From Pseudomonadota bacterium (lineage in GTDB: Bacteria > Pseudomonadota > Alphaproteobacteria > MED-G09), in contig JAZAJI010000038.1 of assembly GCA_036230365.1 (NCBI GenBank), forward strand, positions 1 to 46,581: 46,581 bases of DNA. The letters run 5' to 3'. How positions within the stretch are numbered: the first letter of the stretch is position 1; every line of letters begins with the position of its first letter. Shown here piece after piece: positions 9,618-43,208 of this stretch. Below the pieces are notes generated by a model. That model saw only the letters and a list, made by a program, of their open reading frames with translations. It was not told the origin of the DNA and ran no database searches. The position numbers and the translations under genes are program-made.

Positions 9618-11054
9618 ATGGACAAAATTTTTAGGCATCCATCAGTAATTGATGGTAAAGACCCCAATAATTTGAGAGGAGATCCAATAACTAATGATCG
9701 CTATTTCTCAAAAGACTTTATGCAAAAAGAATGGAAGAGTATGTGGACAAAAGTCTGGCTTATTGCGGGCAGGGAAGTCCAAATAAAAGAACCAGGAGAT
9801 TATATTGTCCATGATCTTGCTACAGAATCAGTCATCATCGTTAGACAAAAAGACGGTTCTTTAAGGGGTTTTTATAATAGTTGTGCACATAGGGGGCAAA
9901 GAATTGTTGAGTGCGATAGCTCGCAAGATTCGTTTCGATGCCCTTATCATGATTGGCAATTTGGATTAGATGGCGAAGTAATAGGTTGTCCAGATGAAGA
10001 TGATTATCCTCAAGGGAGTCCTATTGGTAAAAGAAGATTAGTTGAGGTTAGGGTTGATACTTGGGATGGATTTATTTTCTACACCATGAATGATGAGGCT
10101 CCTGATCTTTTAGATTATTTAGACCCTCTTCCAGAAATTTATAAAAATCATAATTTCAAAGACCAGATTAGGGCTCAATGGGTAAGAGTTGAACTTGATG
10201 TAAATTGGAAATTCTTTTGCGATAATTTTAATGAATCTTACCACACTCGTTTTGTACATCCACAAGTGCCTTCGGTTATTGATCAAGATCATTTTACTTC
10301 AAGATATGAAATGTTTCCAAAAGGTCATGCAAGAATAATTCAGATGGGCAGACCTTCCTTAAGGGATAGAATTAAAGAAGGAGAAGATCACCCTTTCGAA
10401 ATGATTCTTGAAGATTGGGGGATTGATACCAGTAAATACCCTGATTATGAATCTTTATCTGAGAAAGGCTGGTTAGATTTAAAAGAGGCAAAAAAGAAGC
10501 TTTGGAAAGAAAAAGGATATCACCACTATGAAAATTTATCGGATGAGGAATTAACAGAAAGTCCTTTTCAATTTATTTTTCCAAATATTGCAATGGGAGT
10601 ACAAGCAGATGGTTGCATCCTCTTAAATTGGTTCCCTCATCCTACAGATCCTGAAAAGTGCTTTTTCGATCTTTGGGATATGGGATATCCAATTGGTGGA
10701 TCTGCAAAAGGTATAGGTAAAACAGGTAGAGATACCGATAAAGGATTCACCTCAACCTCAGCAGGCATAGGCAAACAAGATTTAGCTAATAATCAAGAAT
10801 TTCTTAGTCGCACTAAAGTAAATCCAGTTAAACTTCAGGAAGTTGAATTAGATTTTCGAGATTATGATGGAGGAAAAGGCGTTGAAGATCTTTGGGATCA
10901 TGTTGTTTATCAAGACTGGCAACTCACTGATGGATTACGACGTGGTGTAAGATCTAAAGGGTATCAAGAGCCTTATTTGTCAGGGCAAGAATCCCGAGTT
11001 AGATACTTTCATGAAACTTTACATGATTACCTGAACGGGAAACCGCCAAAATAA
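9618..11054 (+). CDS. Rieske non-heme iron oxygenase, alpha subunit (paralogue)
   Basis: CAHRGQRI..CPYHDWQF and DNFNESYHTRFVH. The N-terminal block YFSKDFMQKEWKSMWTKVW is almost identical to 16402-17766. Confidence 0.85.
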   Translation: MDKIFRHPSVIDGKDPNNLRGDPITNDRYFSKDFMQKEWKSMWTKVWLIAGREVQIKEPGDYIVHDLATESVIIVRQKDGSLRGFYNSCAHRGQRIVECDSSQDSFRCPYHDWQFGLDGEVIGCPDEDDYPQGSPIGKRRLVEVRVDTWDGFIFYTMNDEAPDLLDYLDPLPEIYKNHNFKDQIRAQWVRVELDVNWKFFCDNFNESYHTRFVHPQVPSVIDQDHFTSRYEMFPKGHARIIQMGRPSLRDRIKEGEDHPFEMILEDWGIDTSKYPDYESLSEKGWLDLKEAKKKLWKEKGYHHYENLSDEELTESPFQFIFPNIAMGVQADGCILLNWFPHPTDPEKCFFDLWDMGYPIGGSAKGIGKTGRDTDKGFTSTSAGIGKQDLANNQEFLSRTKVNPVKLQEVELDFRDYDGGKGVEDLWDHVVYQDWQLTDGLRRGVRSKGYQEPYLSGQESRVRYFHETLHDYLNGKPPK

Positions 11055-16401: not shown

Positions 16402-17766
16402 CTATCTCCTTCCTTCAATATAATCATTTAAAACTTCGTGGTAACGCCTTACTCTTCTTTCTTGGTTAGTCAGTATTGCATCCTCAAAACCTTTTGATTT
16501 AACACCTTTTTGCTGGCCAATGGCCATACTTATATCTTGATCAGTAACATAACCCATAGAACCTTCAGGATATATAACCCATTCATGCTCAGCAGGCTTT
16601 AAAGGTCTTGGCCCAAGCGGTGTTTCTGTCATTTTTTCACCAGCAGTTGTTTCTGTAGTATCAGAACCCATAAATGTTGCTGAAGCTGACAAACTTTCCA
16701 TATCAGGTACAAGCCACCAATGTTCAAAAAGGCATTTCTCAGGATCAGTTGGATGTGGTTGTGGTCTTTGAAACTGTATTCCATCAGGTGTCATTGTTAT
16801 ATCATAATTAGGAAAGCAATTATAAAAATAATAATCAGTCAATTGTTCATTAGTTAAAAATTCATAATGCCAAAACCCTCTTTCTTTAGCTAATTTTCTT
16901 TTCTGCTCTTGTATAGCTAATCTTGTTTCTTGAGCCTTTCCTTGAAAATCTTTTGGGTTTAAATCCCATGCCTCTAAAGCCGCGTCTAGAGGAAAATTAA
17001 CATCATTAGGAGACTCATCCCCTAAAGCAGGCTTATGGCCGGGCATCAACATTCTATTGTGTCCATTGTCATACATATCAAATTGAGAAAACTTATAATT
17101 GTTCTCAATATGAACCGAAAGCTCCGGATGTAAAGTTGGTAAATGATAAGATTCATTAAAATTATCATGTATAATCTTCCAATTACAATCTACTTCACAA
17201 GTTAAATTTAAAACCCTTATGTATCTTTCAGGTTGATAAGGTTTCATATGGTCTATAAGAGGATTTAAAGCCTCTTCGAATTTCTGAGGTTTTTCTGATA
17301 AGTTAACCCAAACAAATCCTAAAGAAACTTCGCAGTGCACTTCTTTTAATTTAATTTTTCCACAAGGATTTCCACCATCAAAATCTTCAGCATCTTGCAA
17401 GTGAGTCAAAACACCTTCAGTATTATATTCCCAACCATGGTAGGTACATTTGAAAGTATCTAAACAACCATTATCAACATGAACAAGAATATTGCCTCTG
17501 TGAGGACAAACATTATAAAATGCTTTAATAGATTTATCTTTTTGCCTTACAACTAATATTTCTTCTAATCCAATCCTATAAACAAAAAAATCATCTGGCT
17601 CAGGAATTTCTGACGCTATTCCAGCTATTTGCCATACTTTAGTCCACATATGATCCCATTCTTTTTGCATAAAATCCTTAGAATAGTATCTTGCACCAGA
17701 AATTTTATCCCCTCTCAATTTAGGATCAGGATGCTTTTCTCTTGGAGTAGGAATCATCTTGTTCAT
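16402..17766 (-). CDS. Rieske non-heme iron oxygenase, alpha subunit (paralogue)
   Basis: CPHRGNIL..CTYHGWEY and DNFNESYHLPTLH. The ATG lies 2 nt after the stop of the SnoaL_4 gene. Confidence 0.85.
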   Translation of the reverse strand: MNKMIPTPREKHPDPKLRGDKISGARYYSKDFMQKEWDHMWTKVWQIAGIASEIPEPDDFFVYRIGLEEILVVRQKDKSIKAFYNVCPHRGNILVHVDNGCLDTFKCTYHGWEYNTEGVLTHLQDAEDFDGGNPCGKIKLKEVHCEVSLGFVWVNLSEKPQKFEEALNPLIDHMKPYQPERYIRVLNLTCEVDCNWKIIHDNFNESYHLPTLHPELSVHIENNYKFSQFDMYDNGHNRMLMPGHKPALGDESPNDVNFPLDAALEAWDLNPKDFQGKAQETRLAIQEQKRKLAKERGFWHYEFLTNEQLTDYYFYNCFPNYDITMTPDGIQFQRPQPHPTDPEKCLFEHWWLVPDMESLSASATFMGSDTTETTAGEKMTETPLGPRPLKPAEHEWVIYPEGSMGYVTDQDISMAIGQQKGVKSKGFEDAILTNQERRVRRYHEVLNDYIEGRR

Positions 17767-18301: not shown

Positions 18302-19708
18302 ATGAGCGAAGTTATTAAAGATAAAAACATCAAAATTGATAAGCAAAGAACTCCGGATACGAGTTATACCGAATATTTGAGTGAAGATGCTAAAAAAGTT
18401 CCTGATTTCATGGTTGAAGAAAGTTTTGTAGATCTAGGATCGGACGATATTGATATAGAAAGATATACATCTAAAGAATTCTTTAAAAAAGAAGCAGACT
18501 GCATGTGGACAAGAGTTTGGCAATTTGCATGTAGAGTAGAGGATATTCCAGAGGTTGGAGATAGTCTTGTTTATGATATTCTTGATTGGTCTTTTATTAT
18601 AGTTAGATCTGAAGAAGATAAGATTAAAGGTTTTTATAATAGCTGTCTTCACAGAGGAAGAAGAATTAAGACAGATAGGTCTTTCAGTAAAGACTTGGAG
18701 TGCCCTTTTCACGGTTTTTGCTGGAATCTTGATGGATCACTTAAACGCACACCGGCTCCTTGGGATTTTCAACACATAAAAGATAGAGAGTTTAATTTAC
18801 CGGAAGTACGACTAGAAATCTGGCAAGGTTTTGTTTTTATTAATATGGATGATAATGCAGTATCACTAGAAGAATATTTAGCTCCATTACCAGAACATCA
18901 TGAAAGATGGGATTTAGGAAATTGTAAAAAAGTAATACATGTATCTAAAGTTGTTCCTGGAAATTGGAAAACTGTTCAAGAAGCTTTTATGGAATCATTT
19001 CATGCAACAAAAATTCATCCGGAAATTATGCCTTTCCAAGCAGATGAAAATGCACGGTATGACATATATGGTGATCATATGAATAGAAATATTGCCCTTA
19101 CAGGAAAACCAAGCCCCAATTGCCCTGAAGTTGATGAACAAGAAATATTAGATACTATTTTTTATGGCTCAGGAAGAGTTGAAGCTGAAGATAAAATTAT
19201 TGTACCTGAGGGTGCAGAAGCAAGAAAAGTTGCGGCACAAGCAATGAGAGATGCCTTTAGTGAGGCAGATGGTCATGATTATTCTGATAAATCTGACGCA
19301 GAAATGCTTGATGCTATTGTTTACAATGTCTTTCCGAATTTCTCTCCATGGGGAGGTTTTCCAAGAAATCTTATTTATAGATTTAGACCTAATGGAACTC
19401 GAGAAGATTCAGCTATAATGGAAGCAATATTTTTACAAAGAAATCATAAAGATCCAGAAAAACAAGAAAAATACGAACCAATACCGATTCATTATTTGAG
19501 TGAGGATGAAAATTGGGATGATGCTGAAGAGTTAACAGGGATTGGTTTTATTTTTGATCAGGATATGTCTAATATTCCTGAAGTTGAAAGAGGTATAAGA
19601 ACTAAAAAAGGCGGAAAAATTGTTTATGCTAATTACCAAGAAAGCAGACTTCGTCATTATCATAACACTATTGATAAATATATCGCTAAAGGCCCTTTTA
19701 AACCTTAA
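18302..19708 (+). CDS. Rieske non-heme iron oxygenase, alpha subunit (divergent paralogue)
   Basis: CLHRGRRI..CPFHGFCW and EAFMESFHATKIH. Confidence 0.8.
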   Translation: MSEVIKDKNIKIDKQRTPDTSYTEYLSEDAKKVPDFMVEESFVDLGSDDIDIERYTSKEFFKKEADCMWTRVWQFACRVEDIPEVGDSLVYDILDWSFIIVRSEEDKIKGFYNSCLHRGRRIKTDRSFSKDLECPFHGFCWNLDGSLKRTPAPWDFQHIKDREFNLPEVRLEIWQGFVFINMDDNAVSLEEYLAPLPEHHERWDLGNCKKVIHVSKVVPGNWKTVQEAFMESFHATKIHPEIMPFQADENARYDIYGDHMNRNIALTGKPSPNCPEVDEQEILDTIFYGSGRVEAEDKIIVPEGAEARKVAAQAMRDAFSEADGHDYSDKSDAEMLDAIVYNVFPNFSPWGGFPRNLIYRFRPNGTREDSAIMEAIFLQRNHKDPEKQEKYEPIPIHYLSEDENWDDAEELTGIGFIFDQDMSNIPEVERGIRTKKGGKIVYANYQESRLRHYHNTIDKYIAKGPFKP

Positions 19709-20504: not shown

Positions 20505-21392
20505 TCAGGATGTATCCTTAACTAAGTTTTTTTGAGACGGAAGAGTCGAAAAATCATCTTTATCACCACCAAATAATCTTTCAGGACTCACTGAATCCAT
20601 TGTACCTTCATGATCATTAGGATCTGTATAAAAACCAAGAACAAAACCTCCTTTTGAATAGCCAATTAATGATCTCAGCTCAGGGCTAAAATCTTTAGCT
20701 ATTTCTGGTGGGCAAGATAAGTATTGGTTCTCTTCTTGCCTAAGCCAATTGAGAGTATAATGCATAAAAACGCCGGTTCTGACATCATTTTTAGTTGTAT
20801 TCTTGCCCCCACCATGAAGAACTGTTCCTGTATACAATAAAACAGATCCTGAAGACATTTCTGCATAAGCTATTTCATCTTCTTTAGGCTCTCTATCTTT
20901 TTCCCATTTATGTGAACCAGGGACAATTTGTGTGGCTCCATTTTCTTTAGTAAACTCAGTTAATGCCCATACCGTGCTAAATTGAGTTTCTATTTTTCTA
21001 GGAATATAACCGCCCCAAAGACCTCTATCACGATGTAATATTTGTTTTGTCTCTCCTGGGCCAATACTAACAGCAGAAGTAAAATGCAGTTGATAACCAT
21101 CTCCATAAGGATCTAAAAATTTACCAGCAAGTTCATTGGCCATTGGATTTAGAGCTAACTCTCTGCAAGCTTCTGATCTTGCTAATAGACCTCCAACTCT
21201 TTTTGTCTCAAATCCAGTAAAATCCGAATTCCCTTTAATATAATTATTTAAATAAGGATCTAACTCTTCTTTCATTTGGGCTAAGAAATTTTTATTTAGA
21301 ACATTATCCAATATTACGCCAGCATCCTTATCAATCACCTCTAAAATATCTGAAATGGAAGCGTTAGAATTTAAATGTACTATCTCAGCCAT
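20505..21392 (-). CDS. Phytanoyl-CoA dioxygenase (PhyH) family Fe(II)/2-oxoglutarate oxygenase
   Basis: QILHRDRG (HxD), GATQIVPGSHKW, TVLHGGGKN. Confidence 0.75.
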   Translation of the reverse strand: MAEIVHLNSNASISDILEVIDKDAGVILDNVLNKNFLAQMKEELDPYLNNYIKGNSDFTGFETKRVGGLLARSEACRELALNPMANELAGKFLDPYGDGYQLHFTSAVSIGPGETKQILHRDRGLWGGYIPRKIETQFSTVWALTEFTKENGATQIVPGSHKWEKDREPKEDEIAYAEMSSGSVLLYTGTVLHGGGKNTTKNDVRTGVFMHYTLNWLRQEENQYLSCPPEIAKDFSPELRSLIGYSKGGFVLGFYTDPNDHEGTMDSVSPERLFGGDKDDFSTLPSQKNLVKDTS

Positions 21393-21406
21393 AGATTATT
21401 ATACCC

Positions 21407-21859
21407 CTAAAACCAGCGTCTAACTCTATTAGAGTAGCTTTTATAGTCTTCTCCAAAAAGATTTAACATGGCCTCTTCTTCTGGGATAATTTGAAAAATA
21501 GTTATATATAAAACGAATAAAGGAAGAAAAATAAAACCAACTATCAAACCTTTAAAAACTGAAAGACCAAATAAAAGAAGAAGCATACCTAAATACATAG
21601 GGTTTCTAGTAATTTTAAACATTCCATCAGTAACAAGAGTTGTTGCTTGATCTGGGTTCATTGGATCGATAGTAGTTTCTTTCTTTTTAAAAATTCTTGC
21701 AGAAGAAAATGTCACAAAGATTCCTAAAATAATAAAAATGGACGAAAGTATACCTCTCATAGGAATTTCTAGTACAATAAAATATCTTGATGAGAAATAA
21801 ATTGCCAAAGCAAAAATAAGAGTGACTATTGGTGGAGGTATTTTAGTTTTTAAAAACAT
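21407..21859 (-). CDS. Membrane methyltransferase, ICMT / phospholipid methyltransferase family
   Basis: GMFKITRNPMYLG and EEEAMLNLFGEDYKSYSNRVRRW. 4 TM segments. The ATG overlaps the upstream stop (TAATG). Confidence 0.7.
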   Translation of the reverse strand: MFLKTKIPPPIVTLIFALAIYFSSRYFIVLEIPMRGILSSIFIILGIFVTFSSARIFKKKETTIDPMNPDQATTLVTDGMFKITRNPMYLGMLLLLFGLSVFKGLIVGFIFLPLFVLYITIFQIIPEEEAMLNLFGEDYKSYSNRVRRWF

Positions 21860-22272
21860 TATTGTTGACGAATTCCTCTAGAAACTAACCTATGACAAGA
21901 AATCTTCCATTCACCATTTACCCTTTTCATATCTGTTTCATATGTTGCCCATAATGTAAGAATCTCCCCTTCAGGCTCCTTTAAATAATGTAAAGCCTGC
22001 ACATCTGTGCGACAATGAGCATCATCACCATTTATTGTTGCAAATTGAGGGCCTAACATGTGTTGCGTAGGTCCATAATTAGAAAGCGCACCTTTAACAT
22101 ATTCAACCCAATTATCTCTTCCATTAATTGGAGCATCTCCAAAATCAAGAATCTCAACATCTTCAAGGAAACATGATGAATACAAGTCAAAATCTCTTTC
22201 ATCTACTCCCGCAGCATATTTCAGCATTACATCCTGTAAAGCTATTCTATCTGCAACATATTGATCGTTCAT
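21859..22272 (-). CDS. SnoaL_4 / NTF2-fold protein
   Basis: DRIALQDVMLKYAAGVDERDFD..GEWKIS pattern. SD GGGGG. Confidence 0.65.
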   Translation of the reverse strand: MNDQYVADRIALQDVMLKYAAGVDERDFDLYSSCFLEDVEILDFGDAPINGRDNWVEYVKGALSNYGPTQHMLGPQFATINGDDAHCRTDVQALHYLKEPEGEILTLWATYETDMKRVNGEWKISCHRLVSRGIRQQ

Positions 22273-22354: not shown

Positions 22355-23500
22355 ATGTCTGAAATAAACCCCTTTATGATTCAAATTTCCAATGATGATC
22401 TTGAGGATCTCAAAAGAAGATTATTATCAACAAGATGGCCAGAAAAAGAAACTGTTGAAGATTGGTCACAAGGAATACCCCTTTCTTATATAAAAGAAAT
22501 TAGTGATTACTGGATTAATGAATATGATTGGAGATCAAGAGAAGAATATTATAATTCATTTCCTCAATTTATAACTAATATTGAAGGACTTGATATTCAT
22601 TTTATACATATAAAGAGTCCTCACGAAGAGGCTAAACCTCTAATAATTAGTCATGGTTGGCCAGGTTCTATCGTAGAGTTTCATAAAGTTATTAAACCTT
22701 TAATTGATCCAGTTTCCTTCGGAGGAAAAGCTGAAGACGCATTCCATTTGGTCTGCCCAACTCTACCAGGTTACGGATTTTCAGGAAAACCGTCTCAAAC
22801 AGGTACAGGTGTCGAAAGAATTGCAGAATTATGGGACATATTAATGAATAAAATTGGATACAGTAAATACTTTGCCCAAGGTGGTGATTGGGGCTCTGCA
22901 ATAACTATAGCAATAGGAAAACAAAACAAAGGAAGTTGCCAAGGTATCCATGTCAATATGCCATTTGCCCCACCTACTAAAGAGGCATTAGAAAATCCAT
23001 CTGAAAGAGATAAAATTGCATTTGAAGGTCTTGGCTATTATCAAGAATGGGGATCCGGCTATTCTAAACAACAAAGCACAAGACCTCAAACATTAGGCTA
23101 TGGTCTTGTCGATTCTCCAATTGGGCAAGCAAGTTGGATTATTGAAAAATTTTACGAATGGACAGATTGCAATGGGCATCCTGAAAATATCCTAAATAAA
23201 GAAGAGTTAATAGATAATGTAATGTTTTATTGGCTTACAAAAAGCGCAACCTCTTCCGCAAGACTTTATTGGGAAAGTTTTGGATCATTCGGTGGTAATC
23301 CTGAAGAAAAACTTGAGCTTCCAATAGGGTGCAGTATTTTTCCTAAAGAAATTTCTAGAACCCCAAGAAGTTGGGCTGAGCAGATATATTCAAATATTGT
23401 TTATTGGAATGAATTGAAAAAAGGTGGTCATTTTGCAGCTTTTGAACAACCAGAAATATTTGTTAATGAAATCAGGAATTGTTTTAAAGAAATGCGATAA
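22355..23500 (+). CDS. Epoxide hydrolase, microsomal type (EHN domain plus alpha/beta hydrolase)
   Basis: N-terminal RWPEKETVEDWSQGIPL..YW..YDWR, HGWPGS motif, nucleophile GGDWGS, C-terminal GGHFAAFEQP. Confidence 0.8.
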   Translation: MSEINPFMIQISNDDLEDLKRRLLSTRWPEKETVEDWSQGIPLSYIKEISDYWINEYDWRSREEYYNSFPQFITNIEGLDIHFIHIKSPHEEAKPLIISHGWPGSIVEFHKVIKPLIDPVSFGGKAEDAFHLVCPTLPGYGFSGKPSQTGTGVERIAELWDILMNKIGYSKYFAQGGDWGSAITIAIGKQNKGSCQGIHVNMPFAPPTKEALENPSERDKIAFEGLGYYQEWGSGYSKQQSTRPQTLGYGLVDSPIGQASWIIEKFYEWTDCNGHPENILNKEELIDNVMFYWLTKSATSSARLYWESFGSFGGNPEEKLELPIGCSIFPKEISRTPRSWAEQIYSNIVYWNELKKGGHFAAFEQPEIFVNEIRNCFKEMR

Positions 23501-23515
23501 TTTTTTTGATACTAA

Positions 23516-23866
23516 TTAAAATAATTTATACCCATATTGTCTTGATAGAACATCAACAATAATTACCCCTATTGCAGTTATAAGAATGCTTATAATAACT
23601 GCTATATAAAAGCCAAATTTATTTATAAAAAATGGAAATACCAAAAACATTGGTATCGTCGGAAGTAAATACAAAAGAGTATATGAAATATGCGAAGAAA
23701 TTTTGTCTGTAGAATTACCCTCATAATACATCCATAATATTACCAAGAAAGTAACAATAGGCATTGCAGCAATAAGGCCGCCTAACCTATCATCTGCTTT
23801 TGCAATTTCACTTATTAAGACTATTAAACAAGCAGTTATTATTATCTTTAAAATAATATAAATCAT
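23516..23866 (-). CDS. Small 4-TM membrane protein, DUF3147-like
   Basis: 116 aa. The ILKIIITACLIVLISEIAK start resembles DUF3147 proteins as I recall them. Confidence 0.5.
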   Translation of the reverse strand: MIYIILKIIITACLIVLISEIAKADDRLGGLIAAMPIVTFLVILWMYYEGNSTDKISSHISYTLLYLLPTIPMFLVFPFFINKFGFYIAVIISILITAIGVIIVDVLSRQYGYKLF

Positions 23867-23869
23867 TCT

Positions 23870-24928
23870 TTACTTTATAGATGTAATTTCAATTTTATCT
23901 GAATTTAAAGGCAGTATTACCATTGTACCATCTTCAGAAAGAGTCCAATCTTTTCTAATTTCACTTACACCTCTTACAAACATGTCTTCCATTAAACTTA
24001 GTCTTGGTGCAGGAGTAAGGTGATAAAAAACTAAATGACCTACATTAGCTTTATTTGCTACCTCAGCCGCCTCAATTGGTGTTGTGTGATATGTTGTAAT
24101 ATCTGACATGATTTTAGCAGCAAGAATATTACCAGATTTTTGATTGGTATCCTTGATTATCTTCAATATATGATTGGCCTGAGCTTCGTGAAATAAAACA
24201 TCAGCATTCAAAGAGTTTTTTATAACATTCTCATGATAAATTGTGTCCCCGCTTATCACGATAGACCTTCCTTTATAGTCAAAACGATAACCTAATGCTG
24301 GCTCAACAGGATCATGAACAACTGCAAAAGCCGTTACTTTTAAACCATCATCATTAATAATTATAGGATTTGATAAATCAATAGGGTAAGGCTCAAAACC
24401 TGATACATCTAAAGGTGCAACTTCATCTCCATGATGCTCATTTCTAAATAGATAATCTATAGCATACGCATCTTCAAAGCCTTTAGTGACAGTTTCAACT
24501 CCCTTTGGCCCATAAACAGAAAGTTTTTTAGACCTTGATTGTGCAATCCATGCATTTAAATGCAAATCTGCAAGGTCGGATATATGATCAGAATGAAGAT
24601 GAGTAAACAATGCTGCCTTAACATTTCCTAAATCAATTCTCCAATTTCTCAAATTAGTTACACTTCCATCACCAACATCAATTACATAAAGATTTTTTCC
24701 AGCCTTTATTAAGATACAAGCCTCCGCTCTCCCCGGTGCAGGTAATGGAGATCGACTACCACAGACTACAGCGCTTAAAGCATCTTCAGGTAATGTGGTT
24801 TGGCTACTTAAAATTCTATTAATAGCATTAGCAGTCACTCGGTCTTGAACTGCTGGGATTCTTGTTAAAACAATTATCCCTACTATTAAAATCAAGATTA
24901 ATATGAATATATATCTTAAAATTCTCAT
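23870..24928 (-). CDS. Membrane-anchored MBL-fold metallohydrolase (RNase Z / arylsulfatase-like branch)
   Basis: N-terminal TM helix, then FTHLHSDHISD, GDT and HTT motifs. The ATG overlaps the upstream stop (ATGA). Confidence 0.7.
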   Translation of the reverse strand: MRILRYIFILILILIVGIIVLTRIPAVQDRVTANAINRILSSQTTLPEDALSAVVCGSRSPLPAPGRAEACILIKAGKNLYVIDVGDGSVTNLRNWRIDLGNVKAALFTHLHSDHISDLADLHLNAWIAQSRSKKLSVYGPKGVETVTKGFEDAYAIDYLFRNEHHGDEVAPLDVSGFEPYPIDLSNPIIINDDGLKVTAFAVVHDPVEPALGYRFDYKGRSIVISGDTIYHENVIKNSLNADVLFHEAQANHILKIIKDTNQKSGNILAAKIMSDITTYHTTPIEAAEVANKANVGHLVFYHLTPAPRLSLMEDMFVRGVSEIRKDWTLSEDGTMVILPLNSDKIEITSIK

Positions 24929-25401
24929 TTCGATTCTCTAAGGGATAAAATAAAGAATATAATTAAGAAAATAAGTATATATGGAGCTAGATAGACACCG
25001 GGTGTTGCAGAGCTGTTAAAATTATTAATAACATCCCCGCCTCTACCAAAGAAAGGATAATACAAGAGTCTTACTCCCCACTCAATTATCCAAAACACAT
25101 ACATAAGTGGAACAAAAGATCTATATTTAAAAATAGCTATCCAACATACAAAACAAAAAATTAATTGTGCAAAGCCCCATATAGAAAAAAACCTATATAT
25201 CAATGGCATTGGATCCGGATCGCCCGTTAAAACCATTACATTTGCTATTTCATGAAGACCAAAAGGTTCAAAGAACATATGTATTATTGAACGCCAAGTC
25301 ATCAATGCAAGAACAGCTATAAGCATCCAAAACGCTATTCGACTTCCTGAATAATTATTATTCGCATTTTCAGGAAGGATTTTATTGAAAAAATTTACCA
25401 T
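24925..25401 (-). CDS. Membrane protein, unknown function
   Basis: 158 aa with 4 hydrophobic segments. Overlaps both neighbours. Confidence 0.45.
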   Translation of the reverse strand: MVNFFNKILPENANNNYSGSRIAFWMLIAVLALMTWRSIIHMFFEPFGLHEIANVMVLTGDPDPMPLIYRFFSIWGFAQLIFCFVCWIAIFKYRSFVPLMYVFWIIEWGVRLLYYPFFGRGGDVINNFNSSATPGVYLAPYILIFLIIFFILSLRESK

Positions 25402-25979
25402 TCAAATGCTCCTGTTTTCGTCTCAATGTTAAGTTGGCCTTTTAAACCCGCAGAACGATGTTTTTCGCTTTCTTGATAGTCTGAGTCCATTATCATCTCC
25501 AGCATTGCTTTACGACTCGGATATTTAGCAATTGCAACTACATCCCAAAGCTCTCCTACTTCACCCAGCATCAATCGTTCAACTATTCCTGAAAAAATTG
25601 CCTCTCCTCCAACTTTTTTAAGATGACCCTGCACTTCTTGTCCATAAATTGAGTAAGCCTCTGCACCAGTCAAATTAGTTTCACGACCATCTTCATACTC
25701 TGCTTTATCTTTAAATTTTAGTAAGTTAACCATATATATGGGTGTATCAATATCACCTTCAAATAAACCCTTCATTTGCCCATCAGTTGGTCTTATTGCA
25801 TTTTTTACTTCCATTACTTCATCTCCATTTATTTTTTTTATTGATAGCTTCGACTCTTCTCCAGATCCTCGTGCTTCAAGGATAAGGGGATATATCTCAA
25901 AAATGATATTGGCTCGATAATGCCAACCTACACTTCCTAAGATTATAAAAACACTAATAATAATTACAAAATTTTTCAT
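25395..25979 (-). CDS. Membrane-anchored DUF1330-domain protein
   Basis: N-terminal TM helix, then a DUF1330-like core YMVNLLKFKDKAEY..WDVVAIAKYPSRKAMLEMIMDSDYQ. Confidence 0.6.
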   Translation of the reverse strand: MKNFVIIISVFIILGSVGWHYRANIIFEIYPLILEARGSGEESKLSIKKINGDEVMEVKNAIRPTDGQMKGLFEGDIDTPIYMVNLLKFKDKAEYEDGRETNLTGAEAYSIYGQEVQGHLKKVGGEAIFSGIVERLMLGEVGELWDVVAIAKYPSRKAMLEMIMDSDYQESEKHRSAGLKGQLNIETKTGAFEW

Positions 25980-27043
25980 TTTTTCTCCCTTATGAAGTCT
26001 ATCAATATTCCTGAAAGTTTTTCAGCTCTGGTCCATTGAAAGAAATGACCTCCACCAATATGAGGAGCACTTTTCGCATTAGGGCACATATCTAAAACAT
26101 CTTGCTCTATACCATTTGTAACGGGGTCATCTCCGGCAAAAACACTTAAAAAGGGTTTATCCCATTTACTAAAAAATTCTCTTGCCTTCTTTTGTTGTTC
26201 CAACGATGCATCAGGAATTATTGGAACTTGACTAGGCATTGCTCTCGGGCCCATTTTATAACTACCATCAGGGAAAGGCGCTTCGTAAGCTTTAACGAGC
26301 TCTGATCCAAAATTAGATACTCTTCCTAAACCTAGTTTTATAAATATATATTGAGCTAGCATAGATATTCTAGGTCTGTTTTCCATCATTGATGAGGTAA
26401 CAAAACCAATTGGTAAATCCTCAGTATCCCAACACCATTTTTGCCAATACATAAATTTCAAGGCTGGAGAAGTTTCTCCTCCATCCATTTTTCTAACTTC
26501 TTTCATCATAGAAAAAGGTGTTAATCTTAAAGGACTAGCTCTAAAAGCCTTTACCTCCTCTATTATTTCATCAGAAACATTTGGGTTATATGGTAACCCA
26601 GTGTTTCCCATTGAAACTTTTGAAAAGCGATCGGGTTTATCAGCAACCATTCTCAACCCGATTAGGCCACCCCAATCTTGTCCAAAAAAAGTAAGGTCCT
26701 CTAAATTATTTTTCTCCAACCACTGAACCATCCAATCTACTTGTCTTTGGTAAGAATAGTCACCAAGGTTTGCGGGTTTGTCGGATTTACCATAACCAGG
26801 TAAATCTGGAGCTATAACGCGAATACCAGCGGCAGTTAGATAAGGTATCATCCTAATATAAAGGTAGCTCCATACTGGTTGACCATGCATAGCTAAAAGA
26901 ATTGGCCCATCTTTTGGACCTTCATCAATATGGTGAATTCGTAAATCACTCCCATCATGGGTATTAACAGATGTATAATGTGGTTCATAAGGATAATACT
27001 TTAAATTAGAAAAACAGTTATCAGGTGTTCTTAAAATTTCCAC
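25976..27043 (-). CDS. Haloalkane dehalogenase, DhlA-like (HLD-I) with an enlarged cap
   Basis: Collinear with my recollection of Xanthobacter DhlA: RTPDNCFSNL..YP, HHIDEGP, HGQPVWSYLY..MIP, RVIAPDLPGYGKSDKP, nucleophile plus halide Trp GQDWGG, AYEAPFPDGSY, GGGHFFQ. GTG start behind GGGGAAG. About 45 aa longer than DhlA in the cap region. Confidence 0.75.
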   Translation of the reverse strand: MEILRTPDNCFSNLKYYPYEPHYTSVNTHDGSDLRIHHIDEGPKDGPILLAMHGQPVWSYLYIRMIPYLTAAGIRVIAPDLPGYGKSDKPANLGDYSYQRQVDWMVQWLEKNNLEDLTFFGQDWGGLIGLRMVADKPDRFSKVSMGNTGLPYNPNVSDEIIEEVKAFRASPLRLTPFSMMKEVRKMDGGETSPALKFMYWQKWCWDTEDLPIGFVTSSMMENRPRISMLAQYIFIKLGLGRVSNFGSELVKAYEAPFPDGSYKMGPRAMPSQVPIIPDASLEQQKKAREFFSKWDKPFLSVFAGDDPVTNGIEQDVLDMCPNAKSAPHIGGGHFFQWTRAEKLSGILIDFIREKK

Positions 27044-27053
27044 ACTTCTTCCC

Positions 27054-28082
27054 CTAAGATATTAAATTCTCACATCCTGTATTAGCTAAAAAATTTTCAA
27101 TTCTTTTTTTATCTTTAACTTCCAAAGAATTAAATTCGTCCTTTATCCACTGTAAACACTTTGCCTGATAAGGAAATACTTTCTGTTCCCATTCTGCACC
27201 CTTTATATTTACTTTCCAACTATTTAAACCTTCGGATAAAGCTTTTGAGTTTTCTACCATTGCTGGAACATATCCTTTTCCTATTTCTTCAAAAATAGCA
27301 TGTAGAGAATTTGGAGCGTCTTCAAGTGAAAACCAATCGTTTGATTTGACGCTTAATCCCGAAAGATCTTCTATAATATCTACCCATGCAACTGATCTAG
27401 GGGACACTTCTAAAGCTAATGCTCTTGAAGTTGGATCGAACCCTATTAATTGGGTCATTTGTCCATAAAAAGAAAAGTCAGATGAGGAAGGTCTACTTCC
27501 AAGTAAATATCGTGAATTCTTAAAATGATCCTCTAAAAGGACTAACAATCTTTTATAACTTTCTTCAATTATTTGAGCGGTTTTATCATTTGAGCCTACA
27601 ACCCATAATCTACTAACCTGAAGCTCAGAAATATAATTTTTAAAAGTTTCATGAGACTCATCATCTAAATTCACTGCACTTAATAGAGGTAAAATATTTC
27701 CTGCATTGTTAATATCTTCTTTAAAATGCCATCTATAGTGGAACATAAATTTCGTAACCCATTCATCACCAAAATCTTCTAATATTGAATTAATAAATGC
27801 CAAAGCCTTATCTTCTGGAATTACATTTCTATCTCCAAATTGGGTTTCAAGCTGACGAATTATTGGAGTTGAATCACATATTGCTTCTTTTTCATTGGGA
27901 AATATAAAAACTGGTAAAAGAAGAGGTTTTGGTGCAGCCAAGCCCATCTCATCTAGGATTTCTTTAGTATTCCCCCATATAATTTTATAAGGAATTCTTC
28001 TATATCGTAATAGAGCTAACATCTTTCTTGTATAAGGTGATGCTGGAACACCTATTACAATAGTTTTATTATTATTTTCCAA
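27054..28082 (-). CDS. GST-like protein (thioredoxin-like N-domain, long helical C-domain)
   Basis: VPASPYTRKM and CDSTPII (ESxxI-like) motifs. 342 aa. TTG start with AAGGAA upstream. Confidence 0.55.
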   Translation of the reverse strand: MENNNKTIVIGVPASPYTRKMLALLRYRRIPYKIIWGNTKEILDEMGLAAPKPLLLPVFIFPNEKEAICDSTPIIRQLETQFGDRNVIPEDKALAFINSILEDFGDEWVTKFMFHYRWHFKEDINNAGNILPLLSAVNLDDESHETFKNYISELQVSRLWVVGSNDKTAQIIEESYKRLLVLLEDHFKNSRYLLGSRPSSSDFSFYGQMTQLIGFDPTSRALALEVSPRSVAWVDIIEDLSGLSVKSNDWFSLEDAPNSLHAIFEEIGKGYVPAMVENSKALSEGLNSWKVNIKGAEWEQKVFPYQAKCLQWIKDEFNSLEVKDKKRIENFLANTGCENLIS

Positions 28083-28172
28083 TTAAATTTATTCCTTAAA
28101 GTAAATTACTGAAAAGACAATTCTTTTTTGTTATATTAAATTCACTTACGGAAAGATTGTAAAGGAGAAAAA

Positions 28173-29288
28173 ATGAGTTCAGAAATTAGCGAACTTCAAA
28201 CTTCAAAAAATGATTTAACACAAACGCGCATAGAAAGTGGAAATCTTGATTCATCTAATCTAGAGAAAGGCGAAATTTTAGTAAAGATTGAACGCTTTGC
28301 TTTTACCGCAAACAATATAACTTACGGTCTTGCTGGTGATATGATGGGATATTGGAAATTTTTTCCTTCATTAAATGATTCACAAGATGAATGGGGATGT
28401 ATTCCAATGTGGGGGTTTGCCAAAGTTATTCATTCTAATAATGAGAATATAAAGATTGATGAAAGGCTTTTTGGTTATTTTCCAGCATCAAATTCAATAA
28501 TATTAAACCCTATAAAAGTTACTGATCAAAGCCTTACTGACGGTAAGGATCACCGAAAAGAATTGCCCCCCGTTTATAACAACTATATTCGACTTTCTGG
28601 CGAAGAGAATTATGATAGCACAATGGATAATTTAAGAGCTCTCTTGTTTCCCCTTCATATTACTTCTTTTTGCTTATGTGACGCCCTTCAAAATGAATCT
28701 TATTTGGGGGCTTCTCAAGTAATAATTGTTAGTGCTTCAAGCAAGACAGGGATAGGTCTTGCCCAAGGTCTAAAAGATGAAGATGAAAAGCCAAAAATTA
28801 TTGGGCTTACCGCTTCAAAAAATATAGATTTTGTTGAAAGCTTAGGTTGTTATGATGAAGTAATATCTTACAACCAACTTGAGAAAGTTAATTCAGATAT
28901 TCAAAGTGTAATGGTTGATATGGCAGGAAATAGGGAAATATTAGGGACTTTGCATGACTCTCTTAAAGACAATATGTTGAAATGTATTACTGTCGGAATG
29001 ACTCATTGGGATAGTGAAACAACAGCAGAAGATGCACTTGGTCAATTGATGATCAGAGATCGCACTGAATTCTTTTTTGCTCCCGATCATATTCAAAAAA
29101 GAATTAGTGATTGGGGGTCGGAAGGTTATAACCAAAGAACATCAGCCTTCATGAATACTAGAGCCAAACAAAGCATTGAATGGATGAATATTAAAGAGAT
29201 TTCTGGCTTGCATGAGTTTGTAAAGACTTACGATGAGGTTATAAGGGGGCATATTAATCCTGATGAAGGAATAATAGTAATTCCTTAA
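28173..29288 (+). CDS. DUF2855-like protein (MDR/alcohol-dehydrogenase-like fold, unknown function)
   Basis: VKIERFAFTANNITYG..YWKFFP..WGCIPMWGF..ERLFGYFP resembles DUF2855 family members as I recall them. Confidence 0.5.
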   Translation: MSSEISELQTSKNDLTQTRIESGNLDSSNLEKGEILVKIERFAFTANNITYGLAGDMMGYWKFFPSLNDSQDEWGCIPMWGFAKVIHSNNENIKIDERLFGYFPASNSIILNPIKVTDQSLTDGKDHRKELPPVYNNYIRLSGEENYDSTMDNLRALLFPLHITSFCLCDALQNESYLGASQVIIVSASSKTGIGLAQGLKDEDEKPKIIGLTASKNIDFVESLGCYDEVISYNQLEKVNSDIQSVMVDMAGNREILGTLHDSLKDNMLKCITVGMTHWDSETTAEDALGQLMIRDRTEFFFAPDHIQKRISDWGSEGYNQRTSAFMNTRAKQSIEWMNIKEISGLHEFVKTYDEVIRGHINPDEGIIVIP

Positions 29289-30667
29289 TCAATTATACCT
29301 CTAAACCAAAGGATAATTGGGAATAATATTCTTGCATAAAATGGCATTTCAGCGAGCTCAACAATAATTCCATCCGGATCATAAAATGCAATAATGCCTG
29401 ATGAAGAATCAGGACCTGAACAACATGGTGTAATACCTGAAATAAACTGGACCCCTTGTAATTCTAGCTCTCTTACATCTGCTTCTATATCAGTTGTTGC
29501 AAAAGCTATTCTATGGATTCCAGGATGATTTATTGGGATAGGATATGGTTTAGTATTATTATTAGGTTCTATCCATTGGATCAATTCAATTTCTGAACCA
29601 TCGCCTTTAAGTTTCATCAGATTACCTTTAATTTTAATTGCTTTATCAAAACCCATAGCTTTTGAAACTTCCAAAGATTCTGTTTCTGGTAGAGTATTTG
29701 ATATCTTATATCCAAACATTTTATACCAAGCTTTGGACCTTTCTAAATCACTAATATTAAAGGTTACCTCACCAATCTTATAAATATTTGTTATATTTTT
29801 CTGATCTTTTTGAGTAACACCTTCAATTAATTTATAAAATGTTCCGTCTGGATCTTGAAAAATTGCAAAATTCTTACCATCAGATCTTTTTATAGGAGAT
29901 GAAATAAATTTAATTCCATTACTCTTCATATATTCATAATCAGAATTTATATTACTTGAATACATGGAAGCACTTACCATACCTATATTATTCATAGTGG
30001 AATAAGGTTTCTCTTCATTTCTTGGAATTGTAAATTCAATTACATCAATAACTCCACCATTATAATTATTAATACCAAGAAGTTCAGCATAAAGAACATA
30101 GCCCCCTGCCTCACCCCCTTGTGAACCATCATATGAAGTAGGTGTTTTAATTCCCATAGCTCTAGCCATAGCTTGAGTATTTGTTTCCGGAGCGCCAGAT
30201 AGTTTTTCAAAGCCTAAAGAGTTATAAAAATTCTTAGTTTTGTTGAAGTCCGTAACATTTGTATTAAAATGAATCCGAGAAATTACATTTAAATTAACTT
30301 CTGCAGTTTGTTTTATTCGCAATGTAAATTCGTCTTTATTTATTTCTTCCACATTAAGATAAAGAGTATTTTCTTTAATAAGATCGATAGCAATTTCAAT
30401 ATCCTTTTTCCCATCAAATGAATCATCAACAATAATCTTATTATTATTTAAATTGATTTCTAAGTTTGTCATTAAATTAGAACGTGAGATTATTAGCCTA
30501 GCAGGTCCTTCAGTTCCAAAAAAAGTTGTCTGCCCTTTTTCTCTATCTGCAATCTGATAATTGATAAGGTGTCGAGTAAAATCTATTTTCTCAGCATACG
30601 AAATAAGAGGAAATAGAAAAATAAAAAGCGCAAAAACCCTTAAACAGGACAATTTAGAAAAATACAT
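29285..30667 (-). CDS. Secreted multi-domain VOC (glyoxalase/dioxygenase-fold) protein
   Basis: Signal peptide MYFSKLSCLRVFALFIFLFPLISYA when started at ATG 30667. The track start at 30721 lies inside the upstream SDR and has no SD. An unknown domain of about 100 aa is followed by two VOC modules (FNTNVTDFNKTKNFYNSLGF, FNISDLERSKAWYKMFGY, GIHRIAFATTDI). Confidence 0.6.
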   Translation of the reverse strand: MYFSKLSCLRVFALFIFLFPLISYAEKIDFTRHLINYQIADREKGQTTFFGTEGPARLIISRSNLMTNLEINLNNNKIIVDDSFDGKKDIEIAIDLIKENTLYLNVEEINKDEFTLRIKQTAEVNLNVISRIHFNTNVTDFNKTKNFYNSLGFEKLSGAPETNTQAMARAMGIKTPTSYDGSQGGEAGGYVLYAELLGINNYNGGVIDVIEFTIPRNEEKPYSTMNNIGMVSASMYSSNINSDYEYMKSNGIKFISSPIKRSDGKNFAIFQDPDGTFYKLIEGVTQKDQKNITNIYKIGEVTFNISDLERSKAWYKMFGYKISNTLPETESLEVSKAMGFDKAIKIKGNLMKLKGDGSEIELIQWIEPNNNTKPYPIPINHPGIHRIAFATTDIEADVRELELQGVQFISGITPCCSGPDSSSGIIAFYDPDGIIVELAEMPFYARILFPIILWFRGIID

Positions 30668-30698
30668 ATGAAAAATTCCTAAAAAGTTCCTTAAATTC

Positions 30699-31394
30699 TT
30701 ACCAAGGATGGATTTCTCCATTCCATTTATAGAAATTACCAGAATCTTCTTTAGTTAAGCCATTAATAACATTTCTAATACCTGAAGCACTTTCTTCAGC
30801 TGTTATTTCAGCTGTTGGTCCACCCATATCTGTTTGAACCCAACCTGGATGCATAATTGAAACTGTTATTGGCTCTTCAGCCCAGTCAAGTGATAATATC
30901 TTTCCAGCTTTTCCAACGGCAGCTTTAGTGGTTGAATAAATATACATTCCACCCATTGGCCATGTTGAAGCCCCTAATTGACTTGATAAGATCATTAAAT
31001 TTCCATTACCCGACGCAACTAAATTATCTTTAAAAGCTTTCGCAACTAAAAGCGGGCCTATTGTATTTGTGTCTAATGTTCTATGCCACTCTTCAACATC
31101 GATATTATCGATAGATTGATTCTCAGGCATTCCTCCAACAGCACCAGCAACTATAATAACGGTATCGATAGCTGTATCACCAATTTTATTTGAAGCTTCC
31201 TCTATGGAAGAAGGATTAGCAACGTCTAACTGTTCAATTGAAATATTATCTTTACCAGAAGCTAATTCATCTAACAAAGATGCTGATCCAGTATCACGCG
31301 CACATGCAATAACAGAATTGCCTTCCTCAGAATATTGTTTTGTGAGTTCCAGGCCAATTCCTCTTGTTGCACCAACGATCATTATATTAGACAT
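30699..31394 (-). CDS. Short-chain dehydrogenase/reductase (CsgA/C-factor-like)
   Basis: VGATRGIGLEL, YSTTKAAV. Confidence 0.8.
   Translation of the reverse strand: MSNIMIVGATRGIGLELTKQYSEEGNSVIACARDTGSASLLDELASGKDNISIEQLDVANPSSIEEASNKIGDTAIDTVIIVAGAVGGMPENQSIDNIDVEEWHRTLDTNTIGPLLVAKAFKDNLVASGNGNLMILSSQLGASTWPMGGMYIYSTTKAAVGKAGKILSLDWAEEPITVSIMHPGWVQTDMGGPTAEITAEESASGIRNVINGLTKEDSGNFYKWNGEIHPW

Positions 31395-41063: not shown

Positions 41064-43208
<2,145 letters not shown>

Follow-up and report, generated by a model that had tools for sequence, protein, structure and literature searches.

We analysed a run of six minus-strand genes (positions 23516-28082) in a 46,581-nt contig, JAZAJI010000038.1, assigned to the alphaproteobacterial lineage MED-G09; the whole stretch is referred to below as the window. 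In gene order the predicted products are a long glutathione S-transferase (GST)-like protein, a haloalkane dehalogenase of subfamily I (HLD-I), a DUF1330 protein, a 158-residue membrane protein (TM158), a membrane-anchored hydrolase of the metallo-β-lactamase (MBL) fold and a small DUF3147-like protein. We see about an even chance that these six genes are the arrangement, in the PS1 and OCS116 groups, of a membrane-associated module for catabolism or detoxification that is shared by horizontal transfer. Judging from gene order in related genomes, the conserved unit is not the window's six genes as such; it consists of the long Ser-type GST, HLD-I, DUF1330, TM158, the anchored MBL protein and a DUF2855 protein, the last of which is encoded divergently next to the operon. 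The features are as follows.

27054-28082, minus strand: GST-like protein, first gene, 342 aa, TTG start
25976-27043, minus strand: HLD-I (DhlA-type) haloalkane dehalogenase, 355 aa, two cap-domain insertions
25395-25979, minus strand: DUF1330 protein, 194 aa, with a 55-aa N-terminal hydrophobic extension
24925-25401, minus strand: TM158, four-helix membrane protein, 158 aa, no curated family
23870-24928, minus strand: N-terminally anchored di-metal MBL-fold hydrolase, 352 aa, Lactamase_B_2
23516-23866, minus strand: small protein with four transmembrane (TM) segments, DUF3147/PRK09272-like, last gene, family scores sub-threshold
28173-29288, plus strand: DUF2855 protein, divergent from the operon, 371 aa, core module member, predicted medium-chain dehydrogenase/reductase (MDR) fold
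28083-28172, no strand: divergent intergenic region of 90 nt between the operon and DUF2855, presumed from its position to be a promoter region
22355-23500, plus strand: epoxide hydrolase (EHN plus α/β-hydrolase; EHN 133 bits), convergent, 15 nt from the operon end

Operon architecture

The six open reading frames (ORFs), taken from the ORF list and the minus-strand sequence, reproduce exactly the minus-strand operon and the junctions described in the initial annotation. Between the GST and HLD genes the TAG stop is followed by GGGAAGAAGT, 10 nt that are purine-rich and Shine-Dalgarno (SD)-like, and then by the GTG start of the HLD gene. The HLD and DUF1330 genes overlap in ATGA (-4 nt), the DUF1330 and TM158 genes share the 7 nt ATGGTAA, the TM158 and MBL genes again overlap in ATGA (-4 nt), and a 3-nt gap (TAA-aga-ATG) separates the MBL and DUF3147 genes. 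All five junctions of the operon are at or below 10 nt. Since only 5 of the 22 other same-strand junctions in the window are this short (median 33 nt; coding density of the window 94%), a run of five consecutive tight junctions is improbable by chance (naive p ~6e-4).

Junction lengths are also conserved in related loci. In 33 loci GST and HLD are separated by -4 to +10 nt, in 19 loci the DUF1330 gene runs 1-7 nt into TM158, the TM158 to MBL junction is ATGA in 8/8 loci with the window's own gene context (type A, see below), and DUF2855 follows TM158 at -4 to +17 nt in 34 loci. With a common strand, short or overlapping junctions and an order kept in relatives, the six genes form a predicted operon. 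The unusual TTG start of its first gene is supported by seven related genomes, which have TTG or GTG at the same position behind an AGGA-type SD sequence.

Scans for regulatory signals added little. Promoter counts in the window were no higher than in shuffled sequence, and no terminator was found at the operon end. The divergent intergenic region, at 51-90 nt in relatives too short for footprinting, resolved no shared motif besides the SD and start codon, the alignments being either too similar or too diverged. An Rfam scan of the whole window returned zero matches.

Distribution and gene order in related genomes

Related loci were collected by a TM158 profile scan of one genome per species, which gave 80 species-level loci; the fetched loci are named L001 and so on, and their gene contexts are called types A to D. 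For synteny, sixteen window proteins and a second set of neighbour proteins were mapped onto these loci, the former by tblastn. The exact TM158 protein is present on many marine metagenome contigs and metagenome-assembled genomes (MAGs) with identical gene order. Relatives that share 76-95% identity with it carry the labels PS1 clade, OCS116, Rhodobiaceae or Rhizobiales, all Alphaproteobacteria, whereas SAR86 copies are only 50-63% identical to it. The window is therefore PS1/OCS116-like, and the earlier impression of a SAR86-like organism has to be given up, SAR86 being gammaproteobacterial.

Flanks of 6 kb or more on each side are available for 47 loci; 26 of them are clustered, and 17 of these 26 hold GST, HLD, DUF1330, TM158, DUF2855 and MBL together. 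DUF2855 co-localises with TM158 in 23 of the 26 and lies directly downstream of it in SAR86. In type A (nine PS1/OCS116 loci), DUF2855 diverges from the series GST, HLD, DUF1330, TM158, MBL and DUF3147, followed by the convergent epoxide hydrolase and by SnoaL, PEMT and PhyH genes; this is the order of the window. Eight PS1/OCS116 species-level genomes retain the six-gene order with its overlaps; SAR86 retains five of the six genes together with DUF2855. Neighbourhood profiling across SAR86-like and other marine genomes, which had been proposed as a check, thus finds the genes syntenic in relatives. As to the claim that the six genes are a unit, they are indeed co-inherited with order and overlaps kept, and the claim needs amending at both ends: the DUF3147 gene is lineage-specific (an orthologue in 8/9 PS1/OCS116-type loci and in no SAR86 or Flavobacteriaceae-labelled locus; only 4 occurrences, all alphaproteobacterial, in the set with 6-kb flanks), and DUF2855, a core member, had been left out. 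The epoxide hydrolase adjoins the operon in PS1/OCS116 loci, and a 56%-identical copy is found near TM158 in SAR86 L074.

SAR86 genomes show two further contexts. Type B (~35 loci) comes in two orders. The first reads GST, HLD, two small GSTs, one or two DUF1330 genes, TM158, DUF2855, often an S1 sulfatase with a small membrane protein, MBL and a short-chain dehydrogenase/reductase (SDR). In the second, a rearranged form, NMO separates HLD from TM158 and the MBL gene lies on the opposite strand. Among the carriers of this form is Magnimaribacter mokuoloeensis HIMB1674 (L027), reported as the first cultured SAR86 isolate (PMC11582366); its HLD orthologue is at L027 8017-9081, about CP151794.1:1,102,902-1,103,966. 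SAR86 clusters also encode a Nu-class YfcG/YghU-like GST and, in some loci, a 457-aa DSBA-domain protein. In type C (18 loci), a single gene, for a 210-aa protein (x210), comes after TM158. The TM158 sequences group by context, type D (below) being 65% identical to SAR86 type B and the SAR86 type-C paralogue 57%.

Type D comprises six loci labelled Flavobacteriaceae or Bacteroidetes, with the gene order fatty-acid hydroxylase, SDR, MBL, DUF1214, DUF1254, HLD, DJ-1, TM158 and S1 sulfatase. Their flanking acetoacetate-CoA ligase is consistent with that label, its named close relatives all being labelled Flavobacteriaceae. The type-D dehalogenase scores 292 bits against PRK00870 (cut-off 265) and has the full catalytic pentad in 6/6 loci. 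It is 36% identical to the window HLD, against 33% for DhlA. The type-D MBL protein belongs to the same RNase Z/GntH-like subgroup as that of the window and has the same metal ligands. A separate HLD-I lineage thus appears to have been recruited beside TM158 and this MBL subgroup, which is the strongest argument for a functional association.

In ~29/80 loci an S1 sulfatase gene is found no more than about two genes downstream of TM158, and the SAR86 enzyme has an N-terminal signal or anchor akin to that of the MBL protein. Genes near the module in SAR86 and Flavobacteriaceae-type loci encode acyl-CoA dehydrogenase, thiolase, NMO/FabK-like protein, fatty-acid hydroxylase, SDR and acetoacetate-CoA ligase. 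In L063 (17277-18936) a second S1 sulfatase is split into ORFs of 240 and 290 aa, corresponding to the N- and C-terminal halves of arylsulfatase models; it looks like a frameshift or pseudogene.

Between the window and SAR86, identity is 65-74% for HLD, ~70% for DUF1330, 60-70% for DUF2855 and 54-65% for MBL, and such values are high for predicted accessory enzymes compared across classes. Module presence inside SAR86 is patchy. The high cross-class identity together with this patchiness suggests that the module was transferred horizontally as a unit between classes. It is scarcely credible that the genes are instead neighbours by chance, without functional link, in a streamlined genome of this coding density. 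Junctions of at most 10 nt do occur elsewhere in the window and the promoter and terminator scans were uninformative, as such a view would have it; against it stand the run of five tight junctions, an order and overlaps kept across two proteobacterial classes and the recurrence of the core trio with a non-orthologous HLD-I in Flavobacteriaceae-labelled genomes. Because synteny is conserved, chance juxtaposition is effectively refuted.

Predicted enzymes of the module

The GST-like protein scores 47.7 bits against Pfam GST_N_3 (cut-off 22) and 31.8 bits against GST_N_2 (cut-off 25). Its C-terminal half reaches 16-19 bits with GST_C_2, GST_C_3 and GST_C_6, below their cut-offs; residues 178-241 align weakly to the C-domains of delta-class GSTs, and ~100 more residues lie beyond. 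The motif P13-x-S15-P-Y-T-R-K is invariant in 33 orthologues, and S15 aligns to the 'DASPP' catalytic-serine region of delta-class GSTs. From this we infer a catalytic role for S15 and describe the protein as a long Ser-type GST.

The dehalogenase matches NCBIfam PRK00870 over residues 1-354 (322.1 bits, cut-off 265) and Abhydrolase_1 at 87.8 bits. Its closest solved structures are 6f9o (279 bits), 5esr and 4mj3, which we take to be DpcA, DccA and DmrA, respectively. The HLD-I catalytic pentad is Asp-His-Asp plus Trp-Trp (PMC6920932). In the window enzyme D123, H333, D305, W124 and W200 align to D124, H289, D260, W125 and W175 of DhlA (the numbering of the DhlA sequence used matches the literature positions), so the DhlA-type assignment of the initial annotation holds under proper alignment with the full pentad present. 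The pentad is kept in 36/37 aligned sequences, the window's included; the exception carries N where the window enzyme has D305. Over its first 154 residues the window enzyme can be aligned with 6f9o from end to end, and the cap domain is ~45-55 residues longer through two insertions that are present in SAR86 orthologues too. On alignment, the window enzyme is a member of HLD-I with an enlarged cap and an intact predicted active site. It shares with DhlA of Xanthobacter autotrophicus, 6f9o, 5esr and 4mj3 the α/β-hydrolase core, an identical pentad and a PRK00870 score above the cut-off; it differs from them in the longer cap and in the placement of its gene in a module with GST, DUF1330, TM158, DUF2855 and the anchored MBL protein.

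The MBL protein scores 66.9 bits against Lactamase_B_2. The putative metal ligands H110-L-H-S-D-H115 (H110-x-H-x-D-H115), H205, D228, H247 and H281 show no variation among 36 orthologues, of which 35 also keep H303. A hydrophobic segment spans residues 3-21, and the anchor with its juxtamembrane R-[VI]-P-x-[VI]-Q-D-R motif is kept wherever the N-terminus of an alphaproteobacterial or SAR86 orthologue could be read; the type-D protein has a comparable hydrophobic N-terminus. The positive-inside rule would place the MBL domain in the periplasm. Its nearest solved relatives are PNGM-1 (66 bits), the arylsulfatase 8gyg (58.5 bits, E = 6e-15, residues 60-307) and RNase Z (43 bits).

The NCBIfam RNase Z, GntH and phosphodiesterase models all fall far below their cut-offs for this protein. 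An identity as RNase Z itself was considered and rejected, the best RNase Z model giving 124 bits against 363 and TIGR02651 giving 102 against 293; the conserved membrane anchor also argues against a role in tRNA processing. In SulfAtlas, S4 arylsulfatases adjoin the RNase Z clade (PMC5066984) and are defined by at least 30% identity to AtsA over length together with HxHxDH (PMC5066984). The window protein has HxHxDH, and its similarity to this family was measured against 8gyg (58.5 bits). By these matches it falls in the RNase Z/PNGM-1/S4-arylsulfatase neighbourhood. It has HxHxDH and the downstream His/Asp ligands in common with PNGM-1, the S4 arylsulfatases (AtsA; 8gyg) and RNase Z/ElaC, and it differs from all of them in its conserved N-terminal anchor and juxtamembrane motif.

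The DUF2855 protein scores 330 bits against its Pfam family. A sequence search of the PDB gave zero matches, and the literature searched makes no mention of DUF2855. Its AlphaFold2 (AF2) model (pLDDT 83.5) has a GroES-like and a Rossmann domain, and at E <= 0.001 Foldseek returned 402 matches in the PDB, headed by MDR double-bond reductases at probability 1.0. The leading matches are 2j3h (5.7e-17), 4b7x, AtDBR, PA1648, PTGR1, LTB4DH and CurA, with TM-scores of 0.6-0.7. The motif S187-A-S-S-K-T-x-I-G195 is invariant and lies at the first Rossmann β-α turn. DUF2855 thus models as an MDR-type, double-bond-reductase-like oxidoreductase. The predicted two-domain fold is shared with the MDR NADP(H) double-bond reductases (PTGR1/LTB4DH, AtDBR, CurA, PA1648), whereas sequence identity to them is only 11-16% and DUF2855 is a separate Pfam family. 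Three domains of unknown function had been counted at the outset. The picture can be refined: a fold can be modelled for DUF2855, and the MBL protein can be placed near RNase Z, PNGM-1 and S4.

An alternative for the whole module is general detoxification of reactive lipid electrophiles rather than of halogenated compounds. It would be directed at epoxides, at lipids in oxidised or peroxidised form and at α,β-unsaturated aldehydes, the polyunsaturated aldehydes of diatoms for example. GST would conjugate them, DUF2855 would saturate enals and enones, the neighbours of epoxide hydrolase, DJ-1 and glyoxalase type would clear others, and the HLD-like enzyme would act on a non-halogen substrate or be accessory. 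The best structural matches of DUF2855 are indeed alkenal/enone reductases (PTGR1, LTB4DH, AtDBR, CurA), GSTs are abundant in the module (including the Nu-class YfcG/YghU-like GST of SAR86), epoxide hydrolase and VOC/glyoxalase genes are neighbours in the window and DJ-1/PfpI in Flavobacteriaceae-type loci, and one SAR86 lineage has no HLD. However, both halide-stabilising Trp residues and the HLD-I pentad are conserved in two independent TM158-linked HLD-I lineages, which is difficult to account for unless a halide is the leaving group, and the recurrent sulfatases do not suit an aldehyde or enone role. We regard electrophile detoxification, the main rival reading, as unlikely.

Membrane components

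Membrane association, as first proposed, is borne out by the conserved anchor of the MBL protein (in readable N-termini) and by the AF2 model of TM158 as a four-helix membrane protein (pLDDT 82; long helices at 21-42, 65-92, 94-120 and 134-154). TM158 gave zero Pfam or NCBIfam matches in the window protein and zero Pfam families in ten remote relatives. A full profile search collected 568 clusters (50% identity) at E <= 1e-3, across which P10, N15, R37-S38-x-x-H41, W75-G76-x-x-Q79, Y93 (100%) and R111 are conserved. Because these residues are polar and lie inside the helices, they suggest, on the modelled structure, a binding or catalytic site and not a passive anchor. DUF3147 and a 125-aa SAR86 membrane protein (x125) were rejected as TM158 paralogues (hhalign probability 0.2% each); between DUF3147 and x125 there was zero BLASTP alignment.

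Helix 2 of TM158 contains C83-x-x-C86, which is invariant in 20 close relatives. The module could then be a system for thiol/redox chemistry or cofactor handling in the membrane, built on TM158, whose CxxC would be serviced by glutathione-dependent GSTs and, in some SAR86 loci, by the DsbA-domain protein, with the hydrolases as passengers; the SAR86 clusters do encode a YfcG/YghU-like GST of the 'GSH-dependent disulfide-bond oxidoreductase' type besides the DSBA-domain protein. However, both cysteines are found in only 6/74 remote full-length representatives, so that CxxC was rejected as a family feature. A Foldseek search of the TM158 model against the PDB gave zero matches (best E-value 1.5), with nothing resembling VKOR, DsbB or any solved protein, and the conserved linkage to HLD and MBL would be left without explanation. 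A thiol/redox system is accordingly very improbable.

Among the most remote relatives of TM158, genomic context is uninformative, the contigs being too short or eukaryote-like. In L097 and L098 the homologues (31% identity) adjoin a 703-aa protein with EGF-type repeats on contigs of ~36% GC, and the context of the family may there be eukaryotic or otherwise very different. On a short contig of 27% GC (L096, 1-1114), DJ-1, TM158 and sulfatase stand in type-D order; compared with type D, DJ-1 is 86% identical and the sulfatase 72%, TM158 only 40%, so that TM158 has either diverged fast or been replaced inside a conserved neighbourhood.

The DUF1330 protein matches Pfam PF07045 marginally (25.2 bits, cut-off 23), and its domain (residues 69-182) reaches 86 bits (E = 3e-23) with the solved RPA0582 (3dca). 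The domain is shared with RPA0582 (PDB 3dca/3hhl); the window protein differs in adding the N-terminal extension and in its pairing with TM158. In the literature searched DUF1330 receives passing mentions only, with no function described. The initial annotation had called the protein anchored: a hydrophobic segment is present (residues 1-19), and it is lineage-specific, SAR86 orthologues having no anchor. The extension is conserved as protein-coding sequence in eight PS1/OCS116 genomes and found in type A only; the clustered SAR86 orthologues do without it and start at MEVKN. The x210 protein (for example L011, 7001-8115; also L043, L044, L047, L049 and L053) is a DUF1330 homologue by pairwise BLASTP (E = 1e-9), has no Pfam family and carries hydrophobic segments at both ends; it is truncated in L075 and absent in L061 and L039. 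TM158 thus has a DUF1330-type partner in most loci, namely in types A, B and C, with a weaker 26-30% match in type D and a loss in a few loci. One may speculate that the two form an obligate membrane pair that hands over, or acts on, a membrane-embedded substrate.

For the last gene product the family cut-offs are not reached (Pfam PF11345, 16.8 against 23.6; NCBIfam PRK09272.1-4, 130.9 against 154). A precomputed match to PF28289 (BV97_02767) is on record, and four hydrophobic segments are predicted. It is best described as a PRK09272/DUF3147-like small 4-TM protein. The domain calls of the initial annotation hold, DUF3147 being the one that stays sub-threshold in Pfam.

Proposed role of the module

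In the catabolic or detoxification reading, lipophilic algal or abiotic compounds with good leaving groups on alkyl carbons would partition into the envelope. The anchored MBL protein, together with S1 sulfatases in SAR86 and Flavobacteriaceae-type loci, may cleave off ester groups at the surface of the membrane, probably the periplasmic one. In the cytoplasm HLD would hydrolyse C-Cl, C-Br or C-I bonds to alcohol and halide, the tightly coupled GST could deal with electrophilic substrates or intermediates, and DUF2855 may oxidise or reduce the product with NAD(P)(H). The carbon could then be fed into fatty-acid metabolism and β-oxidation, whose genes flank the module in SAR86 and Flavobacteriaceae-type loci. 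The HLD pentad, the MBL metal ligands and the GST serine motif, all intact, support this reading, and a lipid-like substrate fits because the neighbours in SAR86 and Flavobacteriaceae-type loci are of β-oxidation type. The study of the SAR86 isolate infers periplasmic lipid desulfation, abundant GSTs and β-oxidation, with the module cluster and the dehalogenase unmentioned (PMC11582366); that picture, too, fits a lipid-like substrate.

A more specific version can be formulated. TM158 and its DUF1330-type partner would form an integral-membrane enzyme or lipid hand-over unit that couples ester hydrolysis at the surface (MBL, S1 sulfatases) to dehalogenation in the cytoplasm (HLD-I, GST), in a pathway dedicated to algal lipids that carry halogen and sulfate, such as chlorosulfolipid-like metabolites or polyketides with chlorine and sulfate groups. 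The pathway would have spread horizontally among the most abundant heterotrophs of the surface ocean (SAR86, PS1/OCS116 and uncultured Flavobacteriaceae). In this full form we consider it a distinctly long shot. If true, it would give HLD-I a natural role and natural organohalogens a marine sink.

Several observations weigh against the catabolic reading or parts of it. No S1 sulfatase is present within 10 kb of the window operon, and for this reason the sulfate part of the model draws on the SAR86 and Flavobacteriaceae-type loci and on a weak match of the MBL protein to arylsulfatase (58 bits). One SAR86 lineage (L014, L015 and L035) has the rest of the module without HLD, so HLD is not strictly obligatory. 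In ~18 SAR86 loci TM158 has x210 as its only partner, and the TM158/DUF1330 pair should therefore have a role independent of the enzymes. The localisation of DUF1330 seems inconsistent, being anchored in PS1/OCS116, with two TM segments in x210 and unanchored in clustered SAR86 loci. The cap insertions of the dehalogenase could alter its specificity in ways that cannot be read from the sequence. Finally, the taxon labels of MAGs and single-amplified genomes (SAGs) are imperfect: L038 ('Flavobacteriales bacterium NAT88', a MAG) and L041 ('OCS116 cluster bacterium AG-390-A19', a SAG) agree in gene order and in their identities to the window proteins, so at least one of the two public labels is wrong.

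Comparison with known dehalogenation systems

To our knowledge, HLDs are among the best-studied enzymes of biocatalysis, and their natural substrates and physiological context are mostly unknown. DhlA works in a pathway with an alcohol dehydrogenase, an aldehyde dehydrogenase and a haloacid dehalogenase. The lin pathway for hexachlorocyclohexane uses LinA (an NTF2-like dehydrochlorinase), LinB (an HLD of subfamily II), LinC (an SDR), LinD (a GST-type dechlorinase) and LinE (a VOC dioxygenase). At the level of folds, the same superfamilies (SnoaL/NTF2, HLD, SDR, GST and VOC/glyoxalase) are found within ~10 kb in the window; however, the window HLD belongs to subfamily I and the SnoaL and VOC genes lie outside the conserved module. 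Membership of the lin pathway was rejected, the SnoaL protein matching LinA at E = 0.009 (19 bits) and the VOC protein matching nothing solved.

The literature searched contained no description of the module cluster and nothing that ties SAR86 to a haloalkane dehalogenase, in agreement with the earlier remark that no described pathway has this composition. The module, a putative catabolic or detoxification cluster, combines a dehalogenase of known type with three conserved partners that are uncharacterised, and matches no described dehalogenation pathway. It provides functional context for the three uncharacterised families TM158, DUF1330 and DUF2855. Its presence in very abundant ocean bacteria, one host being culturable, makes it testable what marine HLDs act on, and it is a candidate route for the turnover of natural organohalogens, possibly sulfated lipids, in surface seawater. 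The HLD-I lineage with the enlarged cap may accept unusual, perhaps long-chain or amphiphilic, substrates.

Neighbouring genes in the window

Just beyond the convergent epoxide hydrolase lies a second tight run (20505-22272) of SnoaL_4, PEMT/ICMT-like methyltransferase and PhyH dioxygenase genes, with a 1-nt overlap and a 14-nt gap; it is kept with the operon in PS1/OCS116 genomes only. On the other side, a 478-aa VOC/glyoxalase ORF (29285-30721) overlaps the upstream SDR gene (30699-31394) by 23 nt, and its stop overlaps the stop of the convergent DUF2855 gene by 4 nt. Related contigs mostly annotate its start 18 codons downstream (460 aa). The gene is absent in L001 and L017-L024 and would therefore be a recent insertion beside DUF2855.

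Four genes for α-subunits of Rieske ring-hydroxylating oxygenases lie within ~12 kb (8209-9528, 9618-11054, 16402-17766 and 18302-19708). Two of the four are paired with SnoaL-like genes, and no obvious β-subunit or reductase gene was seen. Their presence around the operon suggests a larger island for the oxidation of hydrophobic compounds. Genes for TonB-dependent receptors (5146-7587, 813 aa; 37192-40167, 991 aa) flank the catabolic region as possible routes of substrate uptake. Other genes of the window encode a ChrR-like cupin (468-1601), a β-propeller phytase (3983-5053) and a 710-aa haem peroxidase of the catalase-peroxidase type (41064-43196).

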